Shown piece after piece: positions 7,233 through 59,976 of a DNA stretch of 64,000 nt. The stretch is taken from positions 96,001 through 160,000 of the forward strand of contig JACPJW010000001.1 of assembly GCA_016187335.1 (NCBI GenBank). The letters are read 5' to 3'. The position numbers and the translations under genes are program-made. Position 1 is the stretch's first letter; every line of letters begins with the position of its first letter. The notes under the pieces are model-generated. The model searched no databases and had not been told where the DNA came from. It saw only the letters and a program-made list of their open reading frames with translations. The stretch is from Candidatus Aenigmatarchaeota archaeon (lineage in GTDB: Archaea > Aenigmatarchaeota > Aenigmatarchaeia > GW2011-AR5).

Positions 7233-8084
7233 TTACAAGAAAACCTTCGCCAGCGTCAGCAGGACGCCAGCTCCGAAAAGCATTGCGGAACCTAAAATTA
7301 CCTTCATCCTGATTTTCTTGTCCTTGATTTCCTTGAAGTAGAAAAGCCCCCAAAGAACGCCGACGAGCAGGGCAAGCTGCGTGAGCGGCGCGCCGATTGC
7401 AAGCCCCAGATAAGTTATTGCGTAGAGCGAGCTTAGCATAGCAACAGACCACATAAATCCGGAAATCATGCCCGGCTTCACCTGGTTTTTGACAACTTTT
7501 CTTACCTTCACCAGAAACAGGATTGACGATGCTGCAATTATGCCGGCGGCCATCGGAAACAGGAATTCGTTTATGCCTAAGTTGCTCAGCTTGAAAAGAA
7601 AGGCCGGTGCGCCGAAAAACAGTCCTGCAAAGAAGGCTGCGGCAAGCCCTTTATTGTCCGCATTTATTTTCTCTTTGCCCTGCGACACAAGCACAAGGCC
7701 GGCCAGAAATACAAGCACGCCAAAAGCGCCGAGCGCAATATTAAGCGGCTCCACGAAGAAAAATGTCCCTGAAAGGAACGTGATAATCAGCGGCATTCCT
7801 AACGGAATAGCCGTGCCCTTTGCGATGCCTATTCTTTCTATCGACACGATATGAAGCACGTTCCCGATATTCCACAAGATTCCTGCAAGAATGCCGAAAT
7901 AATTCAAGGCAAAAGGAAACCCCAGCATGAATGTCAGCGCGACGCTTGTTCCTAAAATTCCCAGCGCCATGAACATGTTGTAGTGCAGCATGTTCGGATT
8001 TTTCATCCGCTTTAAGGGCACGAACTGCGAGCCCCAGAATAAAGCAGAAACAGAAGCCGCCGCCACGCCAAGAAGCAGGGACAT
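7233..8084 (-). CDS. DMT-superfamily (GRP/GlcU-like) membrane transporter
   Basis: About 10 hydrophobic segments in two repeats; WGSQFVP and LVGVLWGLFYFKE motifs. Confidence 0.75.
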   Translation of the reverse strand: MSLLLGVAAASVSALFWGSQFVPLKRMKNPNMLHYNMFMALGILGTSVALTFMLGFPFALNYFGILAGILWNIGNVLHIVSIERIGIAKGTAIPLGMPLIITFLSGTFFFVEPLNIALGAFGVLVFLAGLVLVSQGKEKINADNKGLAAAFFAGLFFGAPAFLFKLSNLGINEFLFPMAAGIIAASSILFLVKVRKVVKNQVKPGMISGFMWSVAMLSSLYAITYLGLAIGAPLTQLALLVGVLWGLFYFKEIKDKKIRMKVILGSAMLFGAGVLLTLAKVFL

Positions 8085-8176
8085 AAGATTACATGCGCCG
8101 TCAGATTAAAAAGCTTGCCCACTATGTTCATTTGATTCGGGCCTGTAGTCTAGCTTGGTAGGATTCGGGCTTCGGG

Positions 8177-8241
8177 CAAACTTTTCCAAAAGTTTGATCA
8201 AAAGGATGAGCTTCTAAGAGCTCAAGGAAAAGTTTAGAACC
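8177..8241 (+). other. tRNA intron 1 (65 nt, canonical 37/38, relaxed BHB)
   Basis: AAACTTTTCC/GGAAAAGTTT 10-bp helix, 3-nt bulges, central helix TTCG/AGAA with one G-A mismatch. Confidence 0.9.
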
Positions 8242-8262
8242 AGTCCGTGGCGGGAGTTCAAA

Positions 8263-8308
8263 TTGAACTTTTCCGAAAAGTTCAATCAAAAGGGAAAGTT
8301 CATGAAAA
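8263..8308 (+). other. tRNA intron 2 (46 nt, T-loop 59/60, strict BHB)
   Basis: Central helix TTCA/TGAA, bulges AAT and AAT, inner helix TGAACTTTTCC/GGGAAAGTTCA. Confidence 0.92.
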
Positions 8309-8324
8309 TCTCCCCGGGCCCATT

Positions 8325-8445
8325 CAAACTTTGCTGCTCCAAAGTTTGATCAAACAAACTTCTTTGGAAAAGAAGTTTGATCAAGAAAATAATATGGTCT
8401 GGACAGAATCGCAAAGCGATTCTGGGCAGTGTGGTCAAAAGACAC
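8325..8445. repeat. Cluster of palindromic repeats between tRNA-Pro and trmI (two family-1 copies, a 39-nt family-2 hairpin, a family-1 variant)
   Basis: CAAACTTTG..CAAAGTTTGATCAAA (8325-8354), CAAACTTCTTT..AAAGAAGTTTGATCAAG (8355-8385), AATATGGTCTGGACAGAATCGCAAAGCGATTCTGGGCAG (8391-8429). Confidence 0.85.
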
Positions 8446-9191
8446 TACAAAACCTTCCTCCCGAAAGTGATGAATCCGGTGTGCACAATCTGGGAGGGAC
8501 GGGGATGCGTGTAGTCGCTGACCTGCCAGTCGACCTGCTGCGTTGATATCGTTTTTATCTGCGCGAACTTGTTCTTTTCCAGCTCCTTCACAGCCCTTTT
8601 CTGCTGCTCGATGTGCGGTGAGTAGATGCAAAGCCATCCGCCGCTTTTCAGCGCTGTTTTGCATTTTTTCACCATCTTGTCCGCGTCAATCATGTCCAGC
8701 GTTATCATGTCCAGGTTTTTTTCCGTAAAGCGCTCCGCCGGCTTGTTTTTTATATTCACTGTGCCAGCAAGACCACAGAACTCTATGTTCCTTTTTGCGT
8801 TCTCGTAGAATTTCTTGTTCTTCTCGTAAGTTGTTACGGAGCCGCTGGGCTTTACGATATTGCCGAGGAATATTGACAGGAAAGCAGAGCCCGTGCCTGC
8901 ATCAAGGCAGTGCCAGCCGCTGCTTACGCCTGTGTGCGCAGCTATCTGGCCGGCGTCCTTGGGCATGATTATCTGCGGCATCCTCTTTGCCTTGCGAAGC
9001 AAATCCAGTATGGTGGGTTTTAGCACGACAAATTCGTGGCCGGTGTTGCTTTTCAGAACCTGGCCGTATTTCTTTATTTTCGTAAGGTCAAGAAGACCGT
9101 AATTCGTTGAAAACTTCTTCTGCGCAATGTCGGCGATGAAAGAACGCTCGCCCAAAAGAAGAATCTTGCCCGACGGTTTTTCTTTTTTCAT
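8445..9191 (-). CDS. trmI: tRNA (adenine-N1, A57/A58) methyltransferase TrmI/GCD14
   Basis: PQIIMPKD, DAGTGSAFL SAM-binding motif, LDM, YSP.IEQ. Confidence 0.9.
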   Translation of the reverse strand: MKKEKPSGKILLLGERSFIADIAQKKFSTNYGLLDLTKIKKYGQVLKSNTGHEFVVLKPTILDLLRKAKRMPQIIMPKDAGQIAAHTGVSSGWHCLDAGTGSAFLSIFLGNIVKPSGSVTTYEKNKKFYENAKRNIEFCGLAGTVNIKNKPAERFTEKNLDMITLDMIDADKMVKKCKTALKSGGWLCIYSPHIEQQKRAVKELEKNKFAQIKTISTQQVDWQVSDYTHPRPSQIVHTGFITFGRKVL

Positions 9192-16986: not shown

Positions 16987-17691
16987 TCAAAGGGGGTATT
17001 TTAAGTTTGGGAGATTGCTTCGCTTCATGCTTATCCTGAGCCACGCCAGCCAGAAAATAATAACAGCGGTTATCAGCCCCCAGCTCCACACCACGGCGTG
17101 AACCAGAGCAAAATTAGCGATATCAAAAGTGACGACGTACCAGAAAATGAACCATATGCGGCCGATATTTACAAGATAAATAACCGGCGCAAGCAGCAAA
17201 AAGCCCTTTATTTTCGTGCGCAGCGGCAGCTCCGTGGCAAAAATGAGCGCGAACAAAGCAAGAACAGATTTCCATCCGACGCAGTCCCAGTTTATCAGCG
17301 CGCCCCAGCTGCCGTTCTTGACGGCAACGGAAATCACGTTCCCGTAGGCAGCGGGACTGAAGCCTGTTGCCGCAAGCAGTGAAAAGACAATATTGTACGT
17401 TGTATCTATGAGCAATCCTGATTGCCACCCTGTCAGAAGCAGAAAGTAAAGCGGTATAGCAAAAATATTGAACTTGGCAATAAAGCGGAATAGCGGGTAG
17501 TATTTATTCTTCCGGAATTCGTTAAAGACGGAACGGAAAGTTCTGCCCTTAATTCGAGATGCAATACTGACTTTACTTTTCTTGTTTCCAAAGAAGCCGC
17601 CTTTTCCTTCCGCCTTATTTCGCCTAAATCGGCGGCTTCGATTTTCATTAACGATCCTTTTGATCAAACTTTTTGGAAAAGTTTGTTTCAT
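16987..17691 (-). CDS. Exosortase/archaeosortase-family membrane protein (5' end perturbed by palindromes)
   Basis: NWDCVGW (catalytic Cys), VNIGRI (catalytic Arg) and His in LVHAVVW; multi-TM. Confidence 0.75.
   Translation of the reverse strand: MKQTFPKSLIKRIVNENRSRRFRRNKAEGKGGFFGNKKSKVSIASRIKGRTFRSVFNEFRKNKYYPLFRFIAKFNIFAIPLYFLLLTGWQSGLLIDTTYNIVFSLLAATGFSPAAYGNVISVAVKNGSWGALINWDCVGWKSVLALFALIFATELPLRTKIKGFLLLAPVIYLVNIGRIWFIFWYVVTFDIANFALVHAVVWSWGLITAVIIFWLAWLRISMKRSNLPNLKYPL
17593..17639. repeat. 47-bp palindromic element in the exosortase 5' region
   Basis: GAAGCCGCC...GGCGGCTTC terminal stem. Confidence 0.7.
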
Positions 17692-18700
17692 ATCTTTGCT
17701 TATAATCGCCCAGCCACGAGATAAAGTTTTTCTTTATCGCGCCGTCCACTGCGGCTTTTTCCGCGACCAGGAAGTCACCAACCTTTTTTACCGCAACAGA
17801 ATCTTTTTCCAGGACAGGAACGTCAGCATCTTCCGTTTTTTCGGCAATGATTGCTTTCGGCATTTTTTTTGCAACAGCAGCAACATCAGCCCTTTTATCA
17901 ACGATTACAATCTTATCCCTCACGTCCGCGCCGGGCTCGTATTCAACGAGGATGTAATAATCCTTTTCCAATCCGGCGGGCAGAGTTTCCTTCTTCATGA
18001 CAGGCCTGCTTTTTGCTATAATGCCGGATATTTTCTTTCTCAGTTCCTCTTCGCGCTTCAGTTCGTAGCCGAGCTGCTTCATTTTCTGCTCCAGTTCTGC
18101 TATTTTCTTCCTAAGCTGGGCATTCTCCTTTTCATAGCGTTCTACCTGTTTTCTCAGCTCTAGAATTGACTTGGAATCAACAAGCCTTGAGACAATCCTT
18201 GTATCTTTCCTCTCTTCCGGCGCCAGCATTTTCAGCGCCTGCTCTATGTTGCTTGCCTCGCCCTTTAACAGCAATTCTTTGACGTCGCCTTTCAGTTCCG
18301 CGAAGCCTTTCCTTTCAAGGATAGTGTCTATTTTTTCCAGAAATGAAGAGAAATGTTTTTTCGCTTCCAGAGCCGCAGCCAGAGCGTCCTGCTCGTGGTC
18401 GTTTGCAAAGGAAAATTTTCTGGTCAGCGTTTCTTTTTGTTCAACAGCCATGTTTTCTTTCGGCACATGAATTCTTGCGCCAAATGTCGCGGCTATTTTC
18501 TTCACGAAGTCCGGCGCGCTTTTCTTGTCCGTGGCGATGATGAGCGGGTCGCCTTTGCTCACAATATAGTCGCAGACCGCAGAGAACGAAAAGTCCTTTC
18601 TGCTGGCAACATCAGCAAGCGATGAATCTATGTCAAGCAGCGCGACAGCCGTGGTCGTGCCGGGGTCTATGCCGACGATGAGCTTCCGGATGGGGATCAC
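17648..18700 (-). CDS. DUF460-family protein (RNase H-fold N-terminus plus coiled coil)
   Basis: LIVGIDPGTTTAVA, IIATDK, NDHEQDALAAA. Confidence 0.85.
   Translation of the reverse strand: MIPIRKLIVGIDPGTTTAVALLDIDSSLADVASRKDFSFSAVCDYIVSKGDPLIIATDKKSAPDFVKKIAATFGARIHVPKENMAVEQKETLTRKFSFANDHEQDALAAALEAKKHFSSFLEKIDTILERKGFAELKGDVKELLLKGEASNIEQALKMLAPEERKDTRIVSRLVDSKSILELRKQVERYEKENAQLRKKIAELEQKMKQLGYELKREEELRKKISGIIAKSRPVMKKETLPAGLEKDYYILVEYEPGADVRDKIVIVDKRADVAAVAKKMPKAIIAEKTEDADVPVLEKDSVAVKKVGDFLVAEKAAVDGAIKKNFISWLGDYKQRYETNFSKKFDQKDR
17654..17685 (-). repeat. Family-1 palindromic repeat, near-identical to the start of tRNA intron 1
   Basis: Minus strand CAAACTTTTCCAAAAAGTTTGATCAAAAGGAT versus intron CAAACTTTTCCAAAAGTTTGATCAAAAGGAT (one extra A). 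Confidence 0.9.
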
Positions 18701-48625: not shown

Positions 48626-50269
48626 ATGCATCCGTTTGCGCAGTTCCGCAAGGAATGCGAAGAGTTGTGCGGCGAAAACGCGCGGTTTCTGGAAGAGCCC
48701 AAGGAGCACGCAGACCTCGCCCTGCCTTGCTTCCGCCTGGGCAGGAACCCTGTTGAGATAGCGAAGCAACTGGAAAAAGACCTGCAAAGCAGGATAAAGA
48801 AGGACTCGCTTGTAAAGGATGTGGAAGCGTCAGGTCCATATATTAATTTTTTCATCGACAACAAGAAATTTTCTCATATTGTTATTCAGCAGGTTTTAAA
48901 TGAAAAAGAAAAATACGGCTCGCAGCCGCGCATGAAAGAAAAGATAATGATTGAGTACGCCCATCCAAACACGCACAAGGCCTTCCACGTCGGCCACGTG
49001 CGGAACATCTGCATCGGCGAGGCCCTGTGCAGGCTGCTCGAAAAAAGCGGTTATAAAGTGATCCGCGCAAATTACCAAGGAGATATCGGGCCTCACGTCG
49101 CGAAATGCTTATGGGGCCTGCAGAACCTGGGCATGTCGCAGGAAAAGAACAAGGGCCTTTTTCTCGGTGACGTTTACGCCGCGGCAAACGCGAGGATGGA
49201 GGGGAACCCCCAGCTGGAATCGGAGATCCAGAAGATTAGTAGCGCCCTTTACAGGAGGAGCGACAAAAAACTGCTCCAGTTATGGAAAAAGACAAGGAAG
49301 TGGTCGCTTGACTACTTCGGCTCGATATACAAGGATTTTGGCGCGAAGTTTGACCACCTTTATTTCGAGAGCGAGGTCTTCGAGGAAGGAATAAGGATGG
49401 CTCGCGAGCTGCTCGAGAAGGGTGTCGCGGAGATGAGCGAAGGCGCCATAATTGCCGATTTGAAAAAGCAGGGGCTCGGGGTGTGTGTGATATTGAAAAG
49501 CGATGATGATCCGCTTTACTCGACGAAGGATCTTGGCCTGGTGAAAAAGCAGTTCAGTGAGTACAAGCCCGATAAAATAATCCATGTCGTGGGCTCGGAG
49601 CAGCGGCTGTACTTCCAGCAGATGTTCAAGATATTCGGCTTCATCAACCCTGACTGGGAAAGTAAGAACTACCATCTTTCCTATGAGCTTGTCATGCTGC
49701 AGACGGGCAAGATATCTTCAAGGGCGGGCAGCGTCGTGACTTACGAGCACCTGATCGAGGAAGGGACTGAAAAAGCGGTGGAAGAAATAAAGGAACGAGG
49801 CATCTCGGAAGAAAAAGCCGCGAAGGACATTGCCCTCGCAGCGGTAAAGTATGCCATGCTGAAAAGGGACACTGATAGGACCATAACTTTTGACTGGTCC
49901 GAAGTGCTTAATTTCGAGGGCGACACCGGGCCTTATTTGCAGTACACTTACGCCCGCGCCTTATCCATTTTACGCAAGAGCAAAAGGAAGCCCAAAGCCG
50001 CTCCGCTTTTTACTGAACTAGAGTTCGACCTTGCAAAGAAGCTTGCCATGTTTCCTGAAATCATTGAAAAGTCAGCAAGGGATTTGAAGCCGAACTATGT
50101 TGCAAATTATCTTTATGACCTGGCGACGCTGTTCAACAAATTCTATCATGAAACCCGTGTTGTCGGCACTAAGGAAGAAGAGACTCGCCTAGCGCTGGTT
50201 GCCGCAACGGCGCATGTTCTTAAAAACGGCATGGAAATACTAGGGATAAAAGCATTAGAGAAAATGTAA
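48626..50269 (+). CDS. argS: Arginine-tRNA ligase
   Basis: HVGH (HIGH), KISSR (KMSKS), FEGDTGPYLQYTYAR. Confidence 0.96.
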   Translation: MHPFAQFRKECEELCGENARFLEEPKEHADLALPCFRLGRNPVEIAKQLEKDLQSRIKKDSLVKDVEASGPYINFFIDNKKFSHIVIQQVLNEKEKYGSQPRMKEKIMIEYAHPNTHKAFHVGHVRNICIGEALCRLLEKSGYKVIRANYQGDIGPHVAKCLWGLQNLGMSQEKNKGLFLGDVYAAANARMEGNPQLESEIQKISSALYRRSDKKLLQLWKKTRKWSLDYFGSIYKDFGAKFDHLYFESEVFEEGIRMARELLEKGVAEMSEGAIIADLKKQGLGVCVILKSDDDPLYSTKDLGLVKKQFSEYKPDKIIHVVGSEQRLYFQQMFKIFGFINPDWESKNYHLSYELVMLQTGKISSRAGSVVTYEHLIEEGTEKAVEEIKERGISEEKAAKDIALAAVKYAMLKRDTDRTITFDWSEVLNFEGDTGPYLQYTYARALSILRKSKRKPKAAPLFTELEFDLAKKLAMFPEIIEKSARDLKPNYVANYLYDLATLFNKFYHETRVVGTKEEETRLALVAATAHVLKNGMEILGIKALEKM

Positions 50270-50306
50270 TATGGTCTAGAAAGAATTTCAAAGAAATTCT
50301 TGGTAG
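50268..50306. repeat. 39-nt family-2 hairpin, covarying partner of 8391-8429
   Basis: AATATGGTCTAGAAAGAATTTCAAAGAAATTCTTGGTAG. Confidence 0.85.
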
Positions 50307-50332
50307 GCATCAAGGCATTGGAGAAGATGTAG
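50306..50332 (+). repeat. Synonymously recoded orphan copy of the argS 3' end
   Basis: GGC ATC AAG GCA TTG GAG AAG ATG TAG versus GGG ATA AAA GCA TTA GAG AAA ATG TAA (50243-50269); both read GIKALEKM*. Confidence 0.88.
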
Positions 50333-59608: not shown

Positions 59609-59821
59609 ATGCGCAGGCAGGCAAAGAAAATAGAAATAAAAAACGCCATGAAATGCGGGCGCTGCGAGCTTTCATTCAAGAGCATGCTCGCGCTGAAGAG
59701 GCACAGCCACGTGCATCTGGACGACATGCAGGAACTGAGGCTGCTGCAGGAAGGCCACAAGCCCGTGGAAACGAAGTTCGGCGGGATTTTCAAGGGGAAA
59801 AATAAGGTTATAATAAGTTAA
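59609..59821 (+). CDS. C2H2 zinc-finger protein
   Basis: KCGRCELSFKSMLALKRHSHVH. Confidence 0.75.
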   Translation: MRRQAKKIEIKNAMKCGRCELSFKSMLALKRHSHVHLDDMQELRLLQEGHKPVETKFGGIFKGKNKVIIS

Positions 59822-59976
59822 TTCTTTGATTAAACTTTCTTTCTAAGAAAGTTTACAAGAACAGGGTTATTATAAGCTAATTCTTTTGGTGCAACTTTTC
59901 CTAAAAGTTGCTTTGATTAAACTTTGGATTTACTGGCCACAAGTCTCTTTTGGTGCAACTTTGGAGAAGCAAATTG
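59822..59976. repeat. Family-1 palindrome cluster containing a recoded orphan copy of the C2H2 gene 3' end (59857-59880)
   Basis: Modules at 59824-59856, 59883-59910, 59911-59927 and 59947-59976. AAG AAC AGG GTT ATT ATA AGC TAA versus AAA AAT AAG GTT ATA ATA AGT TAA. Confidence 0.85.

Follow-up and report, generated by a model that had tools for sequence, protein, structure and literature searches.

Transposed families of BHB introns have been described in the tRNA genes of Thermoproteales (Fujishima et al. 2010, summarised in PMC4090602) and were recently re-measured (bioRxiv 10.64898/2026.10.13.758758). According to the summary in PMC4090602, these introns vary in presence among related species, and the mechanism that moves them is thought to act on DNA. 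Population heterogeneity was reported for the tRNA-Thr introns of Caldiarchaeum subterraneum (Sugahara et al. 2012, PMC3293823), where alleles with and without the intron coexist in nature, pointing to intron gain within a short time, and where a 1.8-kb recombinase-bearing element is implicated. Among ultrasmall archaea, heavy tRNA disruption is on record for ARMAN-2, in a paper that does not use the word 'repeat' (PMC3239211). In a 2026 survey of Asgard archaea (bioRxiv 10.64898/2026.10.13.758758), neither tRNA-to-tRNA copying nor mobile elements nor reverse transcription emerged as a general route when each was tested. The acquisition of archaeal tRNA introns is an open question, for which the tRNA-Pro(CGG) locus described here offers a concrete and testable system.

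Two kinds of dispersed repeats are also close to what we describe. The bacterial intrastrand triplex repeats PIT, BoxC and TMECO (Holder et al. 2015, PMC4666352) occur as dispersed, conserved and mostly intergenic copies associated with genome rearrangement. In these class II repeats a pyrimidine arm is followed by a purine arm and then by a reverse-Hoogsteen arm in mirror image of the latter, and this purine-motif triplex was reported not to form in RNA (PMC4666352). The REP/REPIN elements, which go with RAYT transposases, and the palindromic mini-elements derived from IS200/IS605 are short hairpins with a conserved single-stranded flank. They number from tens to hundreds, are located at gene ends, occur in tandem at times and leave no target duplication.

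The window (the whole stretch of 64,000 nt that was analysed) carries a tRNA-Pro(CGG) gene with two introns which share features with all of these systems. Like the introns of Thermoproteales, they vary in presence among related genomes; unlike them, the shared unit is a structured module of 28-35 nt that is conserved class-wide and turns up beyond tRNA genes as well (next to stop codons, in rRNA and in trailers), and the host is a DPANN archaeon with a single one-unit EndA. As in Caldiarchaeum, intron-plus and intron-minus alleles coexist in nature, whereas here the insert is only 46 nt long and no protein-coding element adjoins the gene. The module has the three arms of PIT and TMECO but, unlike those repeats, is archaeal, lies inside introns and adds a fixed hairpin foot with covarying outer pairs; judged from sequence alone, it is A/T-rich with 4-7 triplets, in contrast to the G/C-rich TMECO with 9. 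It shares the hairpin, the flank, the copy number, the gene-end position, the occasional tandem arrangement and the lack of target duplication with REP and the IS200/IS605 mini-elements, whereas no Y1 or TnpB was found here and its copies also occur within tRNA and rRNA genes, where REP elements do not usually sit. In the literature searched, we found no report in which a dispersed, triplex-type repeat of class-wide occurrence makes up BHB introns. We give about even chances to the reading that the two introns are BHB introns whose bodies copy a class-wide, non-coding hairpin/triplex repeat that propagates itself at the DNA level.

The tRNA-Pro(CGG) gene and its two BHB introns

The gene occupies window positions 8139-8322 on the plus strand and measures 184 nt with its introns and 73 nt when spliced. 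After intron removal it gives a cloverleaf with the anticodon CGG and 0 mismatches in its stems. It was missed by default ARAGORN, which called zero tRNAs in the window, and the Rfam 15 covariance models gave nothing at gathering score in the window and nothing at E<=1 in 8050-8480. Exons and introns were delimited by hand reading together with a BHB scanner. All exons lie on the plus strand, namely exon 1 (tRNA positions 1-37) at 8139-8176, with 87-100% identity to relatives, exon 2 (positions 38-59) at 8242-8262 and exon 3 (positions 60-73) at 8309-8322. The span 8177-8308, in which an initial annotation had seen two tRNA introns built from one mobile-looking palindrome, coincides exactly with the interval between the 5' end of intron 1 and the 3' end of intron 2.

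Intron 1 (8177-8241, plus strand, 65 nt) is at the canonical 37/38 position and shows a strict hBHBh' motif. Its central helix TTCG/AGAA forms 3 of 4 pairs (the other being G.A) between the bulges GG|C and CC|A, the intron helix (h') has 10 bp, and the exon helix of 5 bp is the anticodon stem. The intron opens with the module (8177-8203), composed of the hairpin CAAACTTT/AAAGTTTG (8177-8196) and the tail ATCAAAA (8197-8203), which is followed by a second small hairpin (8208-8223, stem GAGCT/AGCTC, loop TCTAAG), by a third arm GGAAAAGTTT (8226-8235), by the exon-matching AGAA (8236-8239) and by the bulge CC (8240-8241).

Intron 2 (8263-8308, plus strand, 46 nt) is inserted in the T loop at position 59/60 and has a perfect hBHBh' motif, with all 4 pairs of the central helix TTCA/TGAA, two bulges AA|T and AA|T, an intron helix (h') of 11 bp and an exon helix of 5 bp which is the T stem. 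As a T is found on either side of the junction, its true position could differ by 1 nt. Its module (8264-8291) consists of the hairpin TGAACTTTT/AAAAGTTCA (8264-8284) and again the tail ATCAAAA (8285-8291), and its 3' part of the third arm GGGAAAGTTCA (8292-8302), the exon-matching TGAA (8303-8306) and the bulge AA (8307-8308).

In the MFE fold of the 184-nt precursor (-66.6 kcal/mol, z = -4.5), the acceptor and T stems are formed together with the two intron helices, and the third arms pair with the first arms and complete the BHB, as the initial annotation had proposed. Both introns have the bulges and helices of the archaeal hBHBh' motif, their removal leaves a canonical cloverleaf with a sensible anticodon, and the orthologue in G037, a genome of another family, has no intron. 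By their sequence and predicted fold, 8177-8241 and 8263-8308 are genuine archaeal BHB introns that would be spliced out of the precursor.

Starting 2 nt past the 3' end of the tRNA, two more variants of the module were detected (8325-8353 and 8355-8384, plus strand), with the tails AAAC and AAGAAA that mirror their purine arms. At 8366, one assembly contig of the likely source sample is 2 nt shorter in the loop of the second trailer module, which points to hairpin length variation within the population. Past the trailer modules, window 8385-8440 holds a second repeat (AATAATATGGTCTGGACAGAAT, a hairpin, then ATTCTGGGCAG), also present at window 50266-50306 and at C2:75116-75170. The final nine codons of argS are present in two versions that differ mostly at third positions (window 50243-50332), with a related hairpin between them.

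The genome (referred to here as G000) has 1.01 Mb, 47% G+C and 91% completeness. Only two intron-less tRNAs could be detected in it by ARAGORN, and the 27 tRNA matches obtained with Infernal were mostly partial, so tRNA disruption is heavy genome-wide. As the standard finders miss nearly all tRNAs here, the annotation of such DPANN genomes is badly incomplete. EndA is encoded by one gene (G000:C2:410.5-411.1 kb; L016 1474-2082, minus strand) of 202 aa, with one N-terminal and one catalytic domain, whose nearest relatives are in groundwater Candidatus Aenigmatarchaeota MAGs; a second copy was not found in G000. Introns at non-canonical positions have been tied to EndA enzymes of the (alpha-beta)2 or epsilon2 type. 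G000 has the single one-unit EndA, yet carries many introns at such positions, and those examined have strict BHBs.

Two introns with different histories

We examined the tRNA-Pro(CGG) gene in seven relatives, and orthologues without one or both introns were present. Apart from the intron-less gene of G037, G015 has a 37/38 intron with an unrelated body and no T-loop intron, while G012, G017 and G024 carry a module intron (TGAAC variant) at 37/38 and an empty T loop. In G002, another hairpin family fills 37/38 and the T loop holds a module intron 90% identical to that of G000. The gene of G001, which belongs to the same genus as G000, has a large D-loop intron, an intact T loop and a 37/38 intron that differs in its body but ends in AGAACC like that of G000. 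At 37/38, an intron is present in 7/8 orthologues (G000 and six of the seven relatives), and the T-loop intron is absent from the same-genus G001 and from five other relatives (G012, G015, G017, G024 and G037).

A still closer allele was found in an environmental contig from an unrelated groundwater study, which matches window 8157-8263, including intron 1, with 1 difference and then continues straight into exon 3 (CTCCCCGGGCCCA). This intron-2-less allele is 99% identical across intron 1. Within G000, two paralogues of intron 2 (C1:25956-26010, 96%; C2:821262-821309, 92%) are located at 59/60 of two tRNAs with different acceptor stems, and the exon-matching four bases vary with the T-loop sequence (TTCA/TGAA, TTCG/CGAA). 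Intron 2 thus belongs with the transposed intron families, in which introns identical by at least 80-90% lie in different tRNAs of one genome, and it shows the presence and absence at orthologous sites that goes with them.

The route of intron birth proposed in the initial annotation, a dispersed repeat invading tRNA loops, is compatible with intron 2, which looks like a recent gain, or else a very recent precise loss elsewhere. Intron 1 is not the birth of an intron, because 37/38 is filled in 7/8 orthologues with only the body differing. That site is old and its body has been swapped, with AGAACC kept in G001; therefore the repeat colonised or overwrote an existing intron. From the distribution of these alleles, the T-loop intron is evidently young or volatile.

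Two processes that are usually lumped can be told apart at this locus, with intron 2 standing for the gain of a new intron and intron 1 for an old one that received a new interior, and the near-identical relatives lacking intron 2 give a rare view of the turnover of archaeal tRNA introns. As a system for study it offers a 46-nt intron which is almost entirely recognisable repeat, filled and empty natural alleles, sister copies in other T loops, and hundreds of related copies in spacers and in the introns of relatives.

A dispersed hairpin module with a mirrored tail

Each intron body is a hairpin with ATCAAAA followed by a third arm, and both introns proved to be copies of a genome-wide repeat. 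Perfect hairpins of at least 7 bp directly before ATCAA occur 93 times in the genome, vs 1-28 times for eleven control 5-mers, and 90/93 of them form one family. A 26-nt pattern gave 62 hits in G000 vs 0 for the reversed pattern, so the module is shared genome-wide beyond chance, and a relaxed census gave 115 copies. The hairpin of 9-12 bp is built from two outer pairs that vary freely, the invariant foot AACTT/AAGTT, a T/A tract and a loop of 3-6 nt. It is followed by ATC and an A-rich run, and the whole structured unit measures 28-35 nt.

The first 31 nt of intron 1 were confirmed to be one A apart (97% identity) from a copy on the minus strand at window 17654-17685. This copy supplies the final ~12 codons of a DUF460 ORF (350 aa, 17648-18700, minus strand), the stop TAA of which overlaps the ATG of the next gene. 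When the DNA of relatives was searched for an empty site corresponding to the DUF460 tail, only the module matched because the flanks are too diverged. The composite of module and second hairpin type seen in intron 1 is met again behind six or more stop codons in other parts of the genome (C2:176409, 260746, 350728, 661091, 815410 and 81056), and BLAST gave 87% identity over 44 nt between the composite of intron 1 and C2:176388-176433. In many solo copies, GG or CGGA behind the tail persists as a remnant of the third arm.

The two outer base pairs take ten different values and are complementary in all 90 perfect copies. In 31/44 informative copies, the tail that follows ATC mirrors the purine arm and neither repeats nor complements it; in a permutation test the mean was 9.8 and the maximum 19 in 5000, so that 0/5000 reached the observed value. 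All G-interrupted tracts (9/9) are mirrored and 0 are direct repeats. Examples are an A5 arm with an A5 tail, AAGAAAG with AAAGAA, and AAAGAAG with AAGAAA. The pyrimidine arm, purine arm and mirrored 3' arm (31/44) are those of the class II intrastrand triplex of PIT and TMECO. We read the hairpin and tail as DNA-level features because this purine mirror symmetry is the class II signature reported not to form in RNA. Pairs of G.U are also nearly lacking between arm 1 and arm 2 (1/261), vs 35/282 between arm 1 and arm 3 in the BHB helix (about 11% with duplicates removed), and since this latter helix tolerates G.U, the third arm appears to be selected as RNA. Taken as sequence patterns, these covariations suggest a DNA-level hairpin/triplex element with an RNA-level third arm, although the putative triplex tract measures just 4-7 nt and an RNA pseudoknot may account for part of this covariation.

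One could ask whether the resemblance is due to chance or to a low-complexity A/T-rich hairpin, with the tRNA mis-called. The motif is A/T-rich, and exact matches also exist in 68 very AT-rich virus-labelled contigs. The controls with the reversed pattern and with other 5-mers refute this explanation, and the covariation, the perfect cloverleaf with its BHBs and the orthologous genes in relatives all count against it, so that we consider it practically out of the question. The virus-labelled contigs just mentioned come from IMG/VR (L143-L210), have 18-40% G+C and include several giant-virus bins; their matches to the exact 26-nt pattern are intergenic, often in tandem arrays with a period of 29 or 38 nt, and none is in a tRNA. 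We considered a viral origin of the module on account of these 68 exact matches and set it aside, given that the contigs are very AT-rich and the matches intergenic and outside tRNAs.

Locations of the module in this genome and in relatives

A copy was assigned to a tRNA gene if it lay inside a span of <=330 nt that was delimited by an acceptor stem with all its pairs formed and included an intact T arm as a boundary. By this rule, 22/115 copies in G000 are in tRNA genes, and 4/115 are within 12 nt of a tRNA 3' end (6 and 0, respectively, in the antisense control). Other tRNA introns carry the module too, as had been predicted. In a set chosen blind to the module, 4/8 introns have it, this set being limited to well-resolved tRNAs (BHB enumeration, ARAGORN and a cloverleaf score resolved about 8-10 cleanly); overall, at least 15 tRNA-gene copies were counted. 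Compact module introns with strong BHBs were also identified in 16S rRNA (C2:242104 and C2:242575) and in 23S rRNA (C2:209927, with an LSU match; C2:209907-209952). The 16S intron site after CTTTGCAA (C2:242100-242600) is also filled in the relative G005. We considered whether arms with T5+ are terminators kept out of introns (0/11 compact introns vs 20/104 other copies) and rejected the idea, the difference pointing in the expected direction but being not significant.

The remaining copies are mostly at the borders of protein genes. Twenty start -4 to +8 nt from the stop codon of a co-oriented ORF, vs 7 in the opposite arrangement, and those adjoining a stop codon often provide the TAA or TGA themselves; other copies are 10-40 nt upstream of a start codon. 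The hexamers before spacer copies were tried as anticodon loops and rejected, since they are mostly stop codons. Whether extragenic copies form BHBs in mRNA had been raised as a check in the initial annotation; they almost never do, and therefore the spacer copies are not hidden mRNA introns. No clear switch of replication-strand bias was found; the strand of the module roughly tracks gene orientation per bin.

Two further copies stand out by their setting. One is in frame and without a stop between the two cupredoxin domains of a multicopper oxidase (C2:888710-888742; L142 nt 629-661), where it makes an 11-residue insert that is probably translated, because it has no BHB. At window 59798-59910, the last eight codons of a gene are present twice (KNKVIIS*, KNRVIIS*), each followed by a reverse-oriented module variant, which looks like a duplicated unit of gene tail plus module.

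The exact pattern was found in 17/41 genomes of the order and in 14/121 genomes sampled across the class, with a control of 0 in both. The usual number is 1-6 copies per genome, and the same-genus G001 has 14 in half a genome. We fetched 38 sites from 14 relatives, 35 of which were re-found for the rule-based test; 20/35 were in tRNA genes and 4/35 directly 3' of a tRNA (antisense control 1 and 1). Two further tRNA introns and one 16S intron, at the same site as in G000, were recognised by eye. In relatives, module introns are inserted in the D, anticodon and T loops of many different tRNAs. About 60% of the copies in relatives are in tRNA or rRNA introns, vs about 20% in G000, so the repeat is not simply 'extragenic', as it had first been called. 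Since the copies of relatives are mostly intronic, introns would be the main home of the repeat in low-copy genomes and the spacer copies an expansion in the genus of G000; on this distribution, introns may be the home from which the spacer copies expanded. Over 33 nt, the module shows 100% identity between genera in which BLASTN no longer aligns the genes on either side of it.

Such class-wide conservation at 1-6 copies per genome suits a host function as well as a selfish element. The module could be a host-functional RNA hairpin or pseudoknot, serving in 3'-end formation, protection or as a processing handle, in which case the cell would position it behind tRNAs, rRNAs and coding regions and within introns, and the shared sequence would reflect shared function and not mobility. 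It is conserved exactly across the class at low copy number, more strongly than the neighbouring genes, and it has a fixed place 1-2 nt past tRNA 3' ends, and past the 16S 3' end, here and in relatives. The sense orientation beside stop codons (20 vs 7) hints at a role at the RNA level, and the loops CC and CTC are complementary to the GG and GAG after the tail, as in an H-type pseudoknot. Against this explanation stand presence and absence at orthologous sites and between 99%-identical alleles, intron bodies that are interchangeable at one site, a ten-fold burst of copies in one genus, and the tandem arrays and the in-frame copy in the multicopper-oxidase gene. The Watson-Crick arms, moreover, are nearly without G.U, unlike the RNA-selected third arm, and RNA reportedly does not adopt the purine-motif structure with its mirror symmetry (PMC4666352). 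On balance we regard a host-functional RNA as rather unlikely.

Possible routes of spread

We searched for a mobilising mechanism in the 91% complete genome. In the search for a Y1 (HUH) transposase and TnpB, the best hits reached 16.7 and 16 bits, which is under the cut-offs, and an internal stop interrupts one of them, so the cognate Y1 or TnpB of REP/RAYT or IS200/IS605 mini-elements was not found; no reverse transcriptase domain in G000 was above the cut-off. A general target-site duplication was not found around the 115 copies, with controls similar below 10 nt. The target-site duplications of MITE-type elements are not a feature of the module, as, tandem arrays aside, just two copies have direct repeats on their flanks, each of 16 nt. 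The one clear duplication-like case is at C2:738991-739041 (minus strand), where the first 16 nt of a tRNA-Met gene are exactly repeated across a module copy; the 16-nt repeat beside the copy at C2:79107 belongs to another module.

Spread at the RNA level would make excised, possibly circular introns re-enter RNAs by a reversed EndA/RtcB reaction wherever their four terminal bases pair, with a DNA copy made afterwards and the spacer copies being decayed retro-insertions. Several observations agree with such a route. The four bases before the 3' splice site track the local exon (TTCA/TGAA and TTCG/CGAA in T loops), the third arm allows G.U and hence is RNA-selected, copies in relatives are mostly intronic, and a third-arm stump is kept in many solo copies. 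It would call for a reverse transcriptase, the domain of which was not found in the genome, and it does not account for spacer copies without BHBs or for the mirror-repeat tail and perfect palindrome, which are DNA-type features. To our knowledge, reverse splicing by EndA has never been shown, which also weighs against it. We consider this route improbable.

Under the reading that we prefer, a repeat propagating at the DNA level, the hairpin and tail would form a perfect Watson-Crick palindrome with a mirror-repeat third strand that presumably multiplies as DNA. It would persist only where it is harmless, i.e. in short spacers at stop codons, in tRNA and rRNA trailers and in RNA that is cut out. 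Copies in tRNAs would gain additions at the RNA level, namely a third arm that pairs with the first arm, with G.U allowed, and four exon-complementary bases, which together give a strict BHB; the precursor would then presumably be cut by the single EndA and joined by RtcB. Copies that acquired the third arm and the four exon-matching bases, or arrived with them, could become introns or replace the interior of old ones. Intron 1 would accordingly be an old 37/38 intron whose interior was replaced in the lineage of G000 by the abundant composite of module and second hairpin, and intron 2 a recent acquisition of a T-loop-specific version that is also present in at least two other tRNAs of G000.

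More tentatively, and with less than even probability, the module may be an archaeal mobile element of a new kind, a protein-less 'introner', moving as folded single-stranded DNA or via the splicing enzymes, and making ready-made BHB introns at four matching bases in structured RNA genes. If true, such an introner would be a long-sought route of intron gain for archaeal tRNA and rRNA genes.

Other hairpin families are common to tRNA introns and spacers. They include AAAGCGnnnnCGGAAA, often after CCCTTT, a 5-bp stem with the loop TCTCAG, and GGAAATGAGGGTAGAGGGAG, which is found in the intron of tRNA-Ala(GGC) at C1:28573-28645. Since several hairpin families occur in both introns and spacers, more than one repeat family appears to colonise introns.
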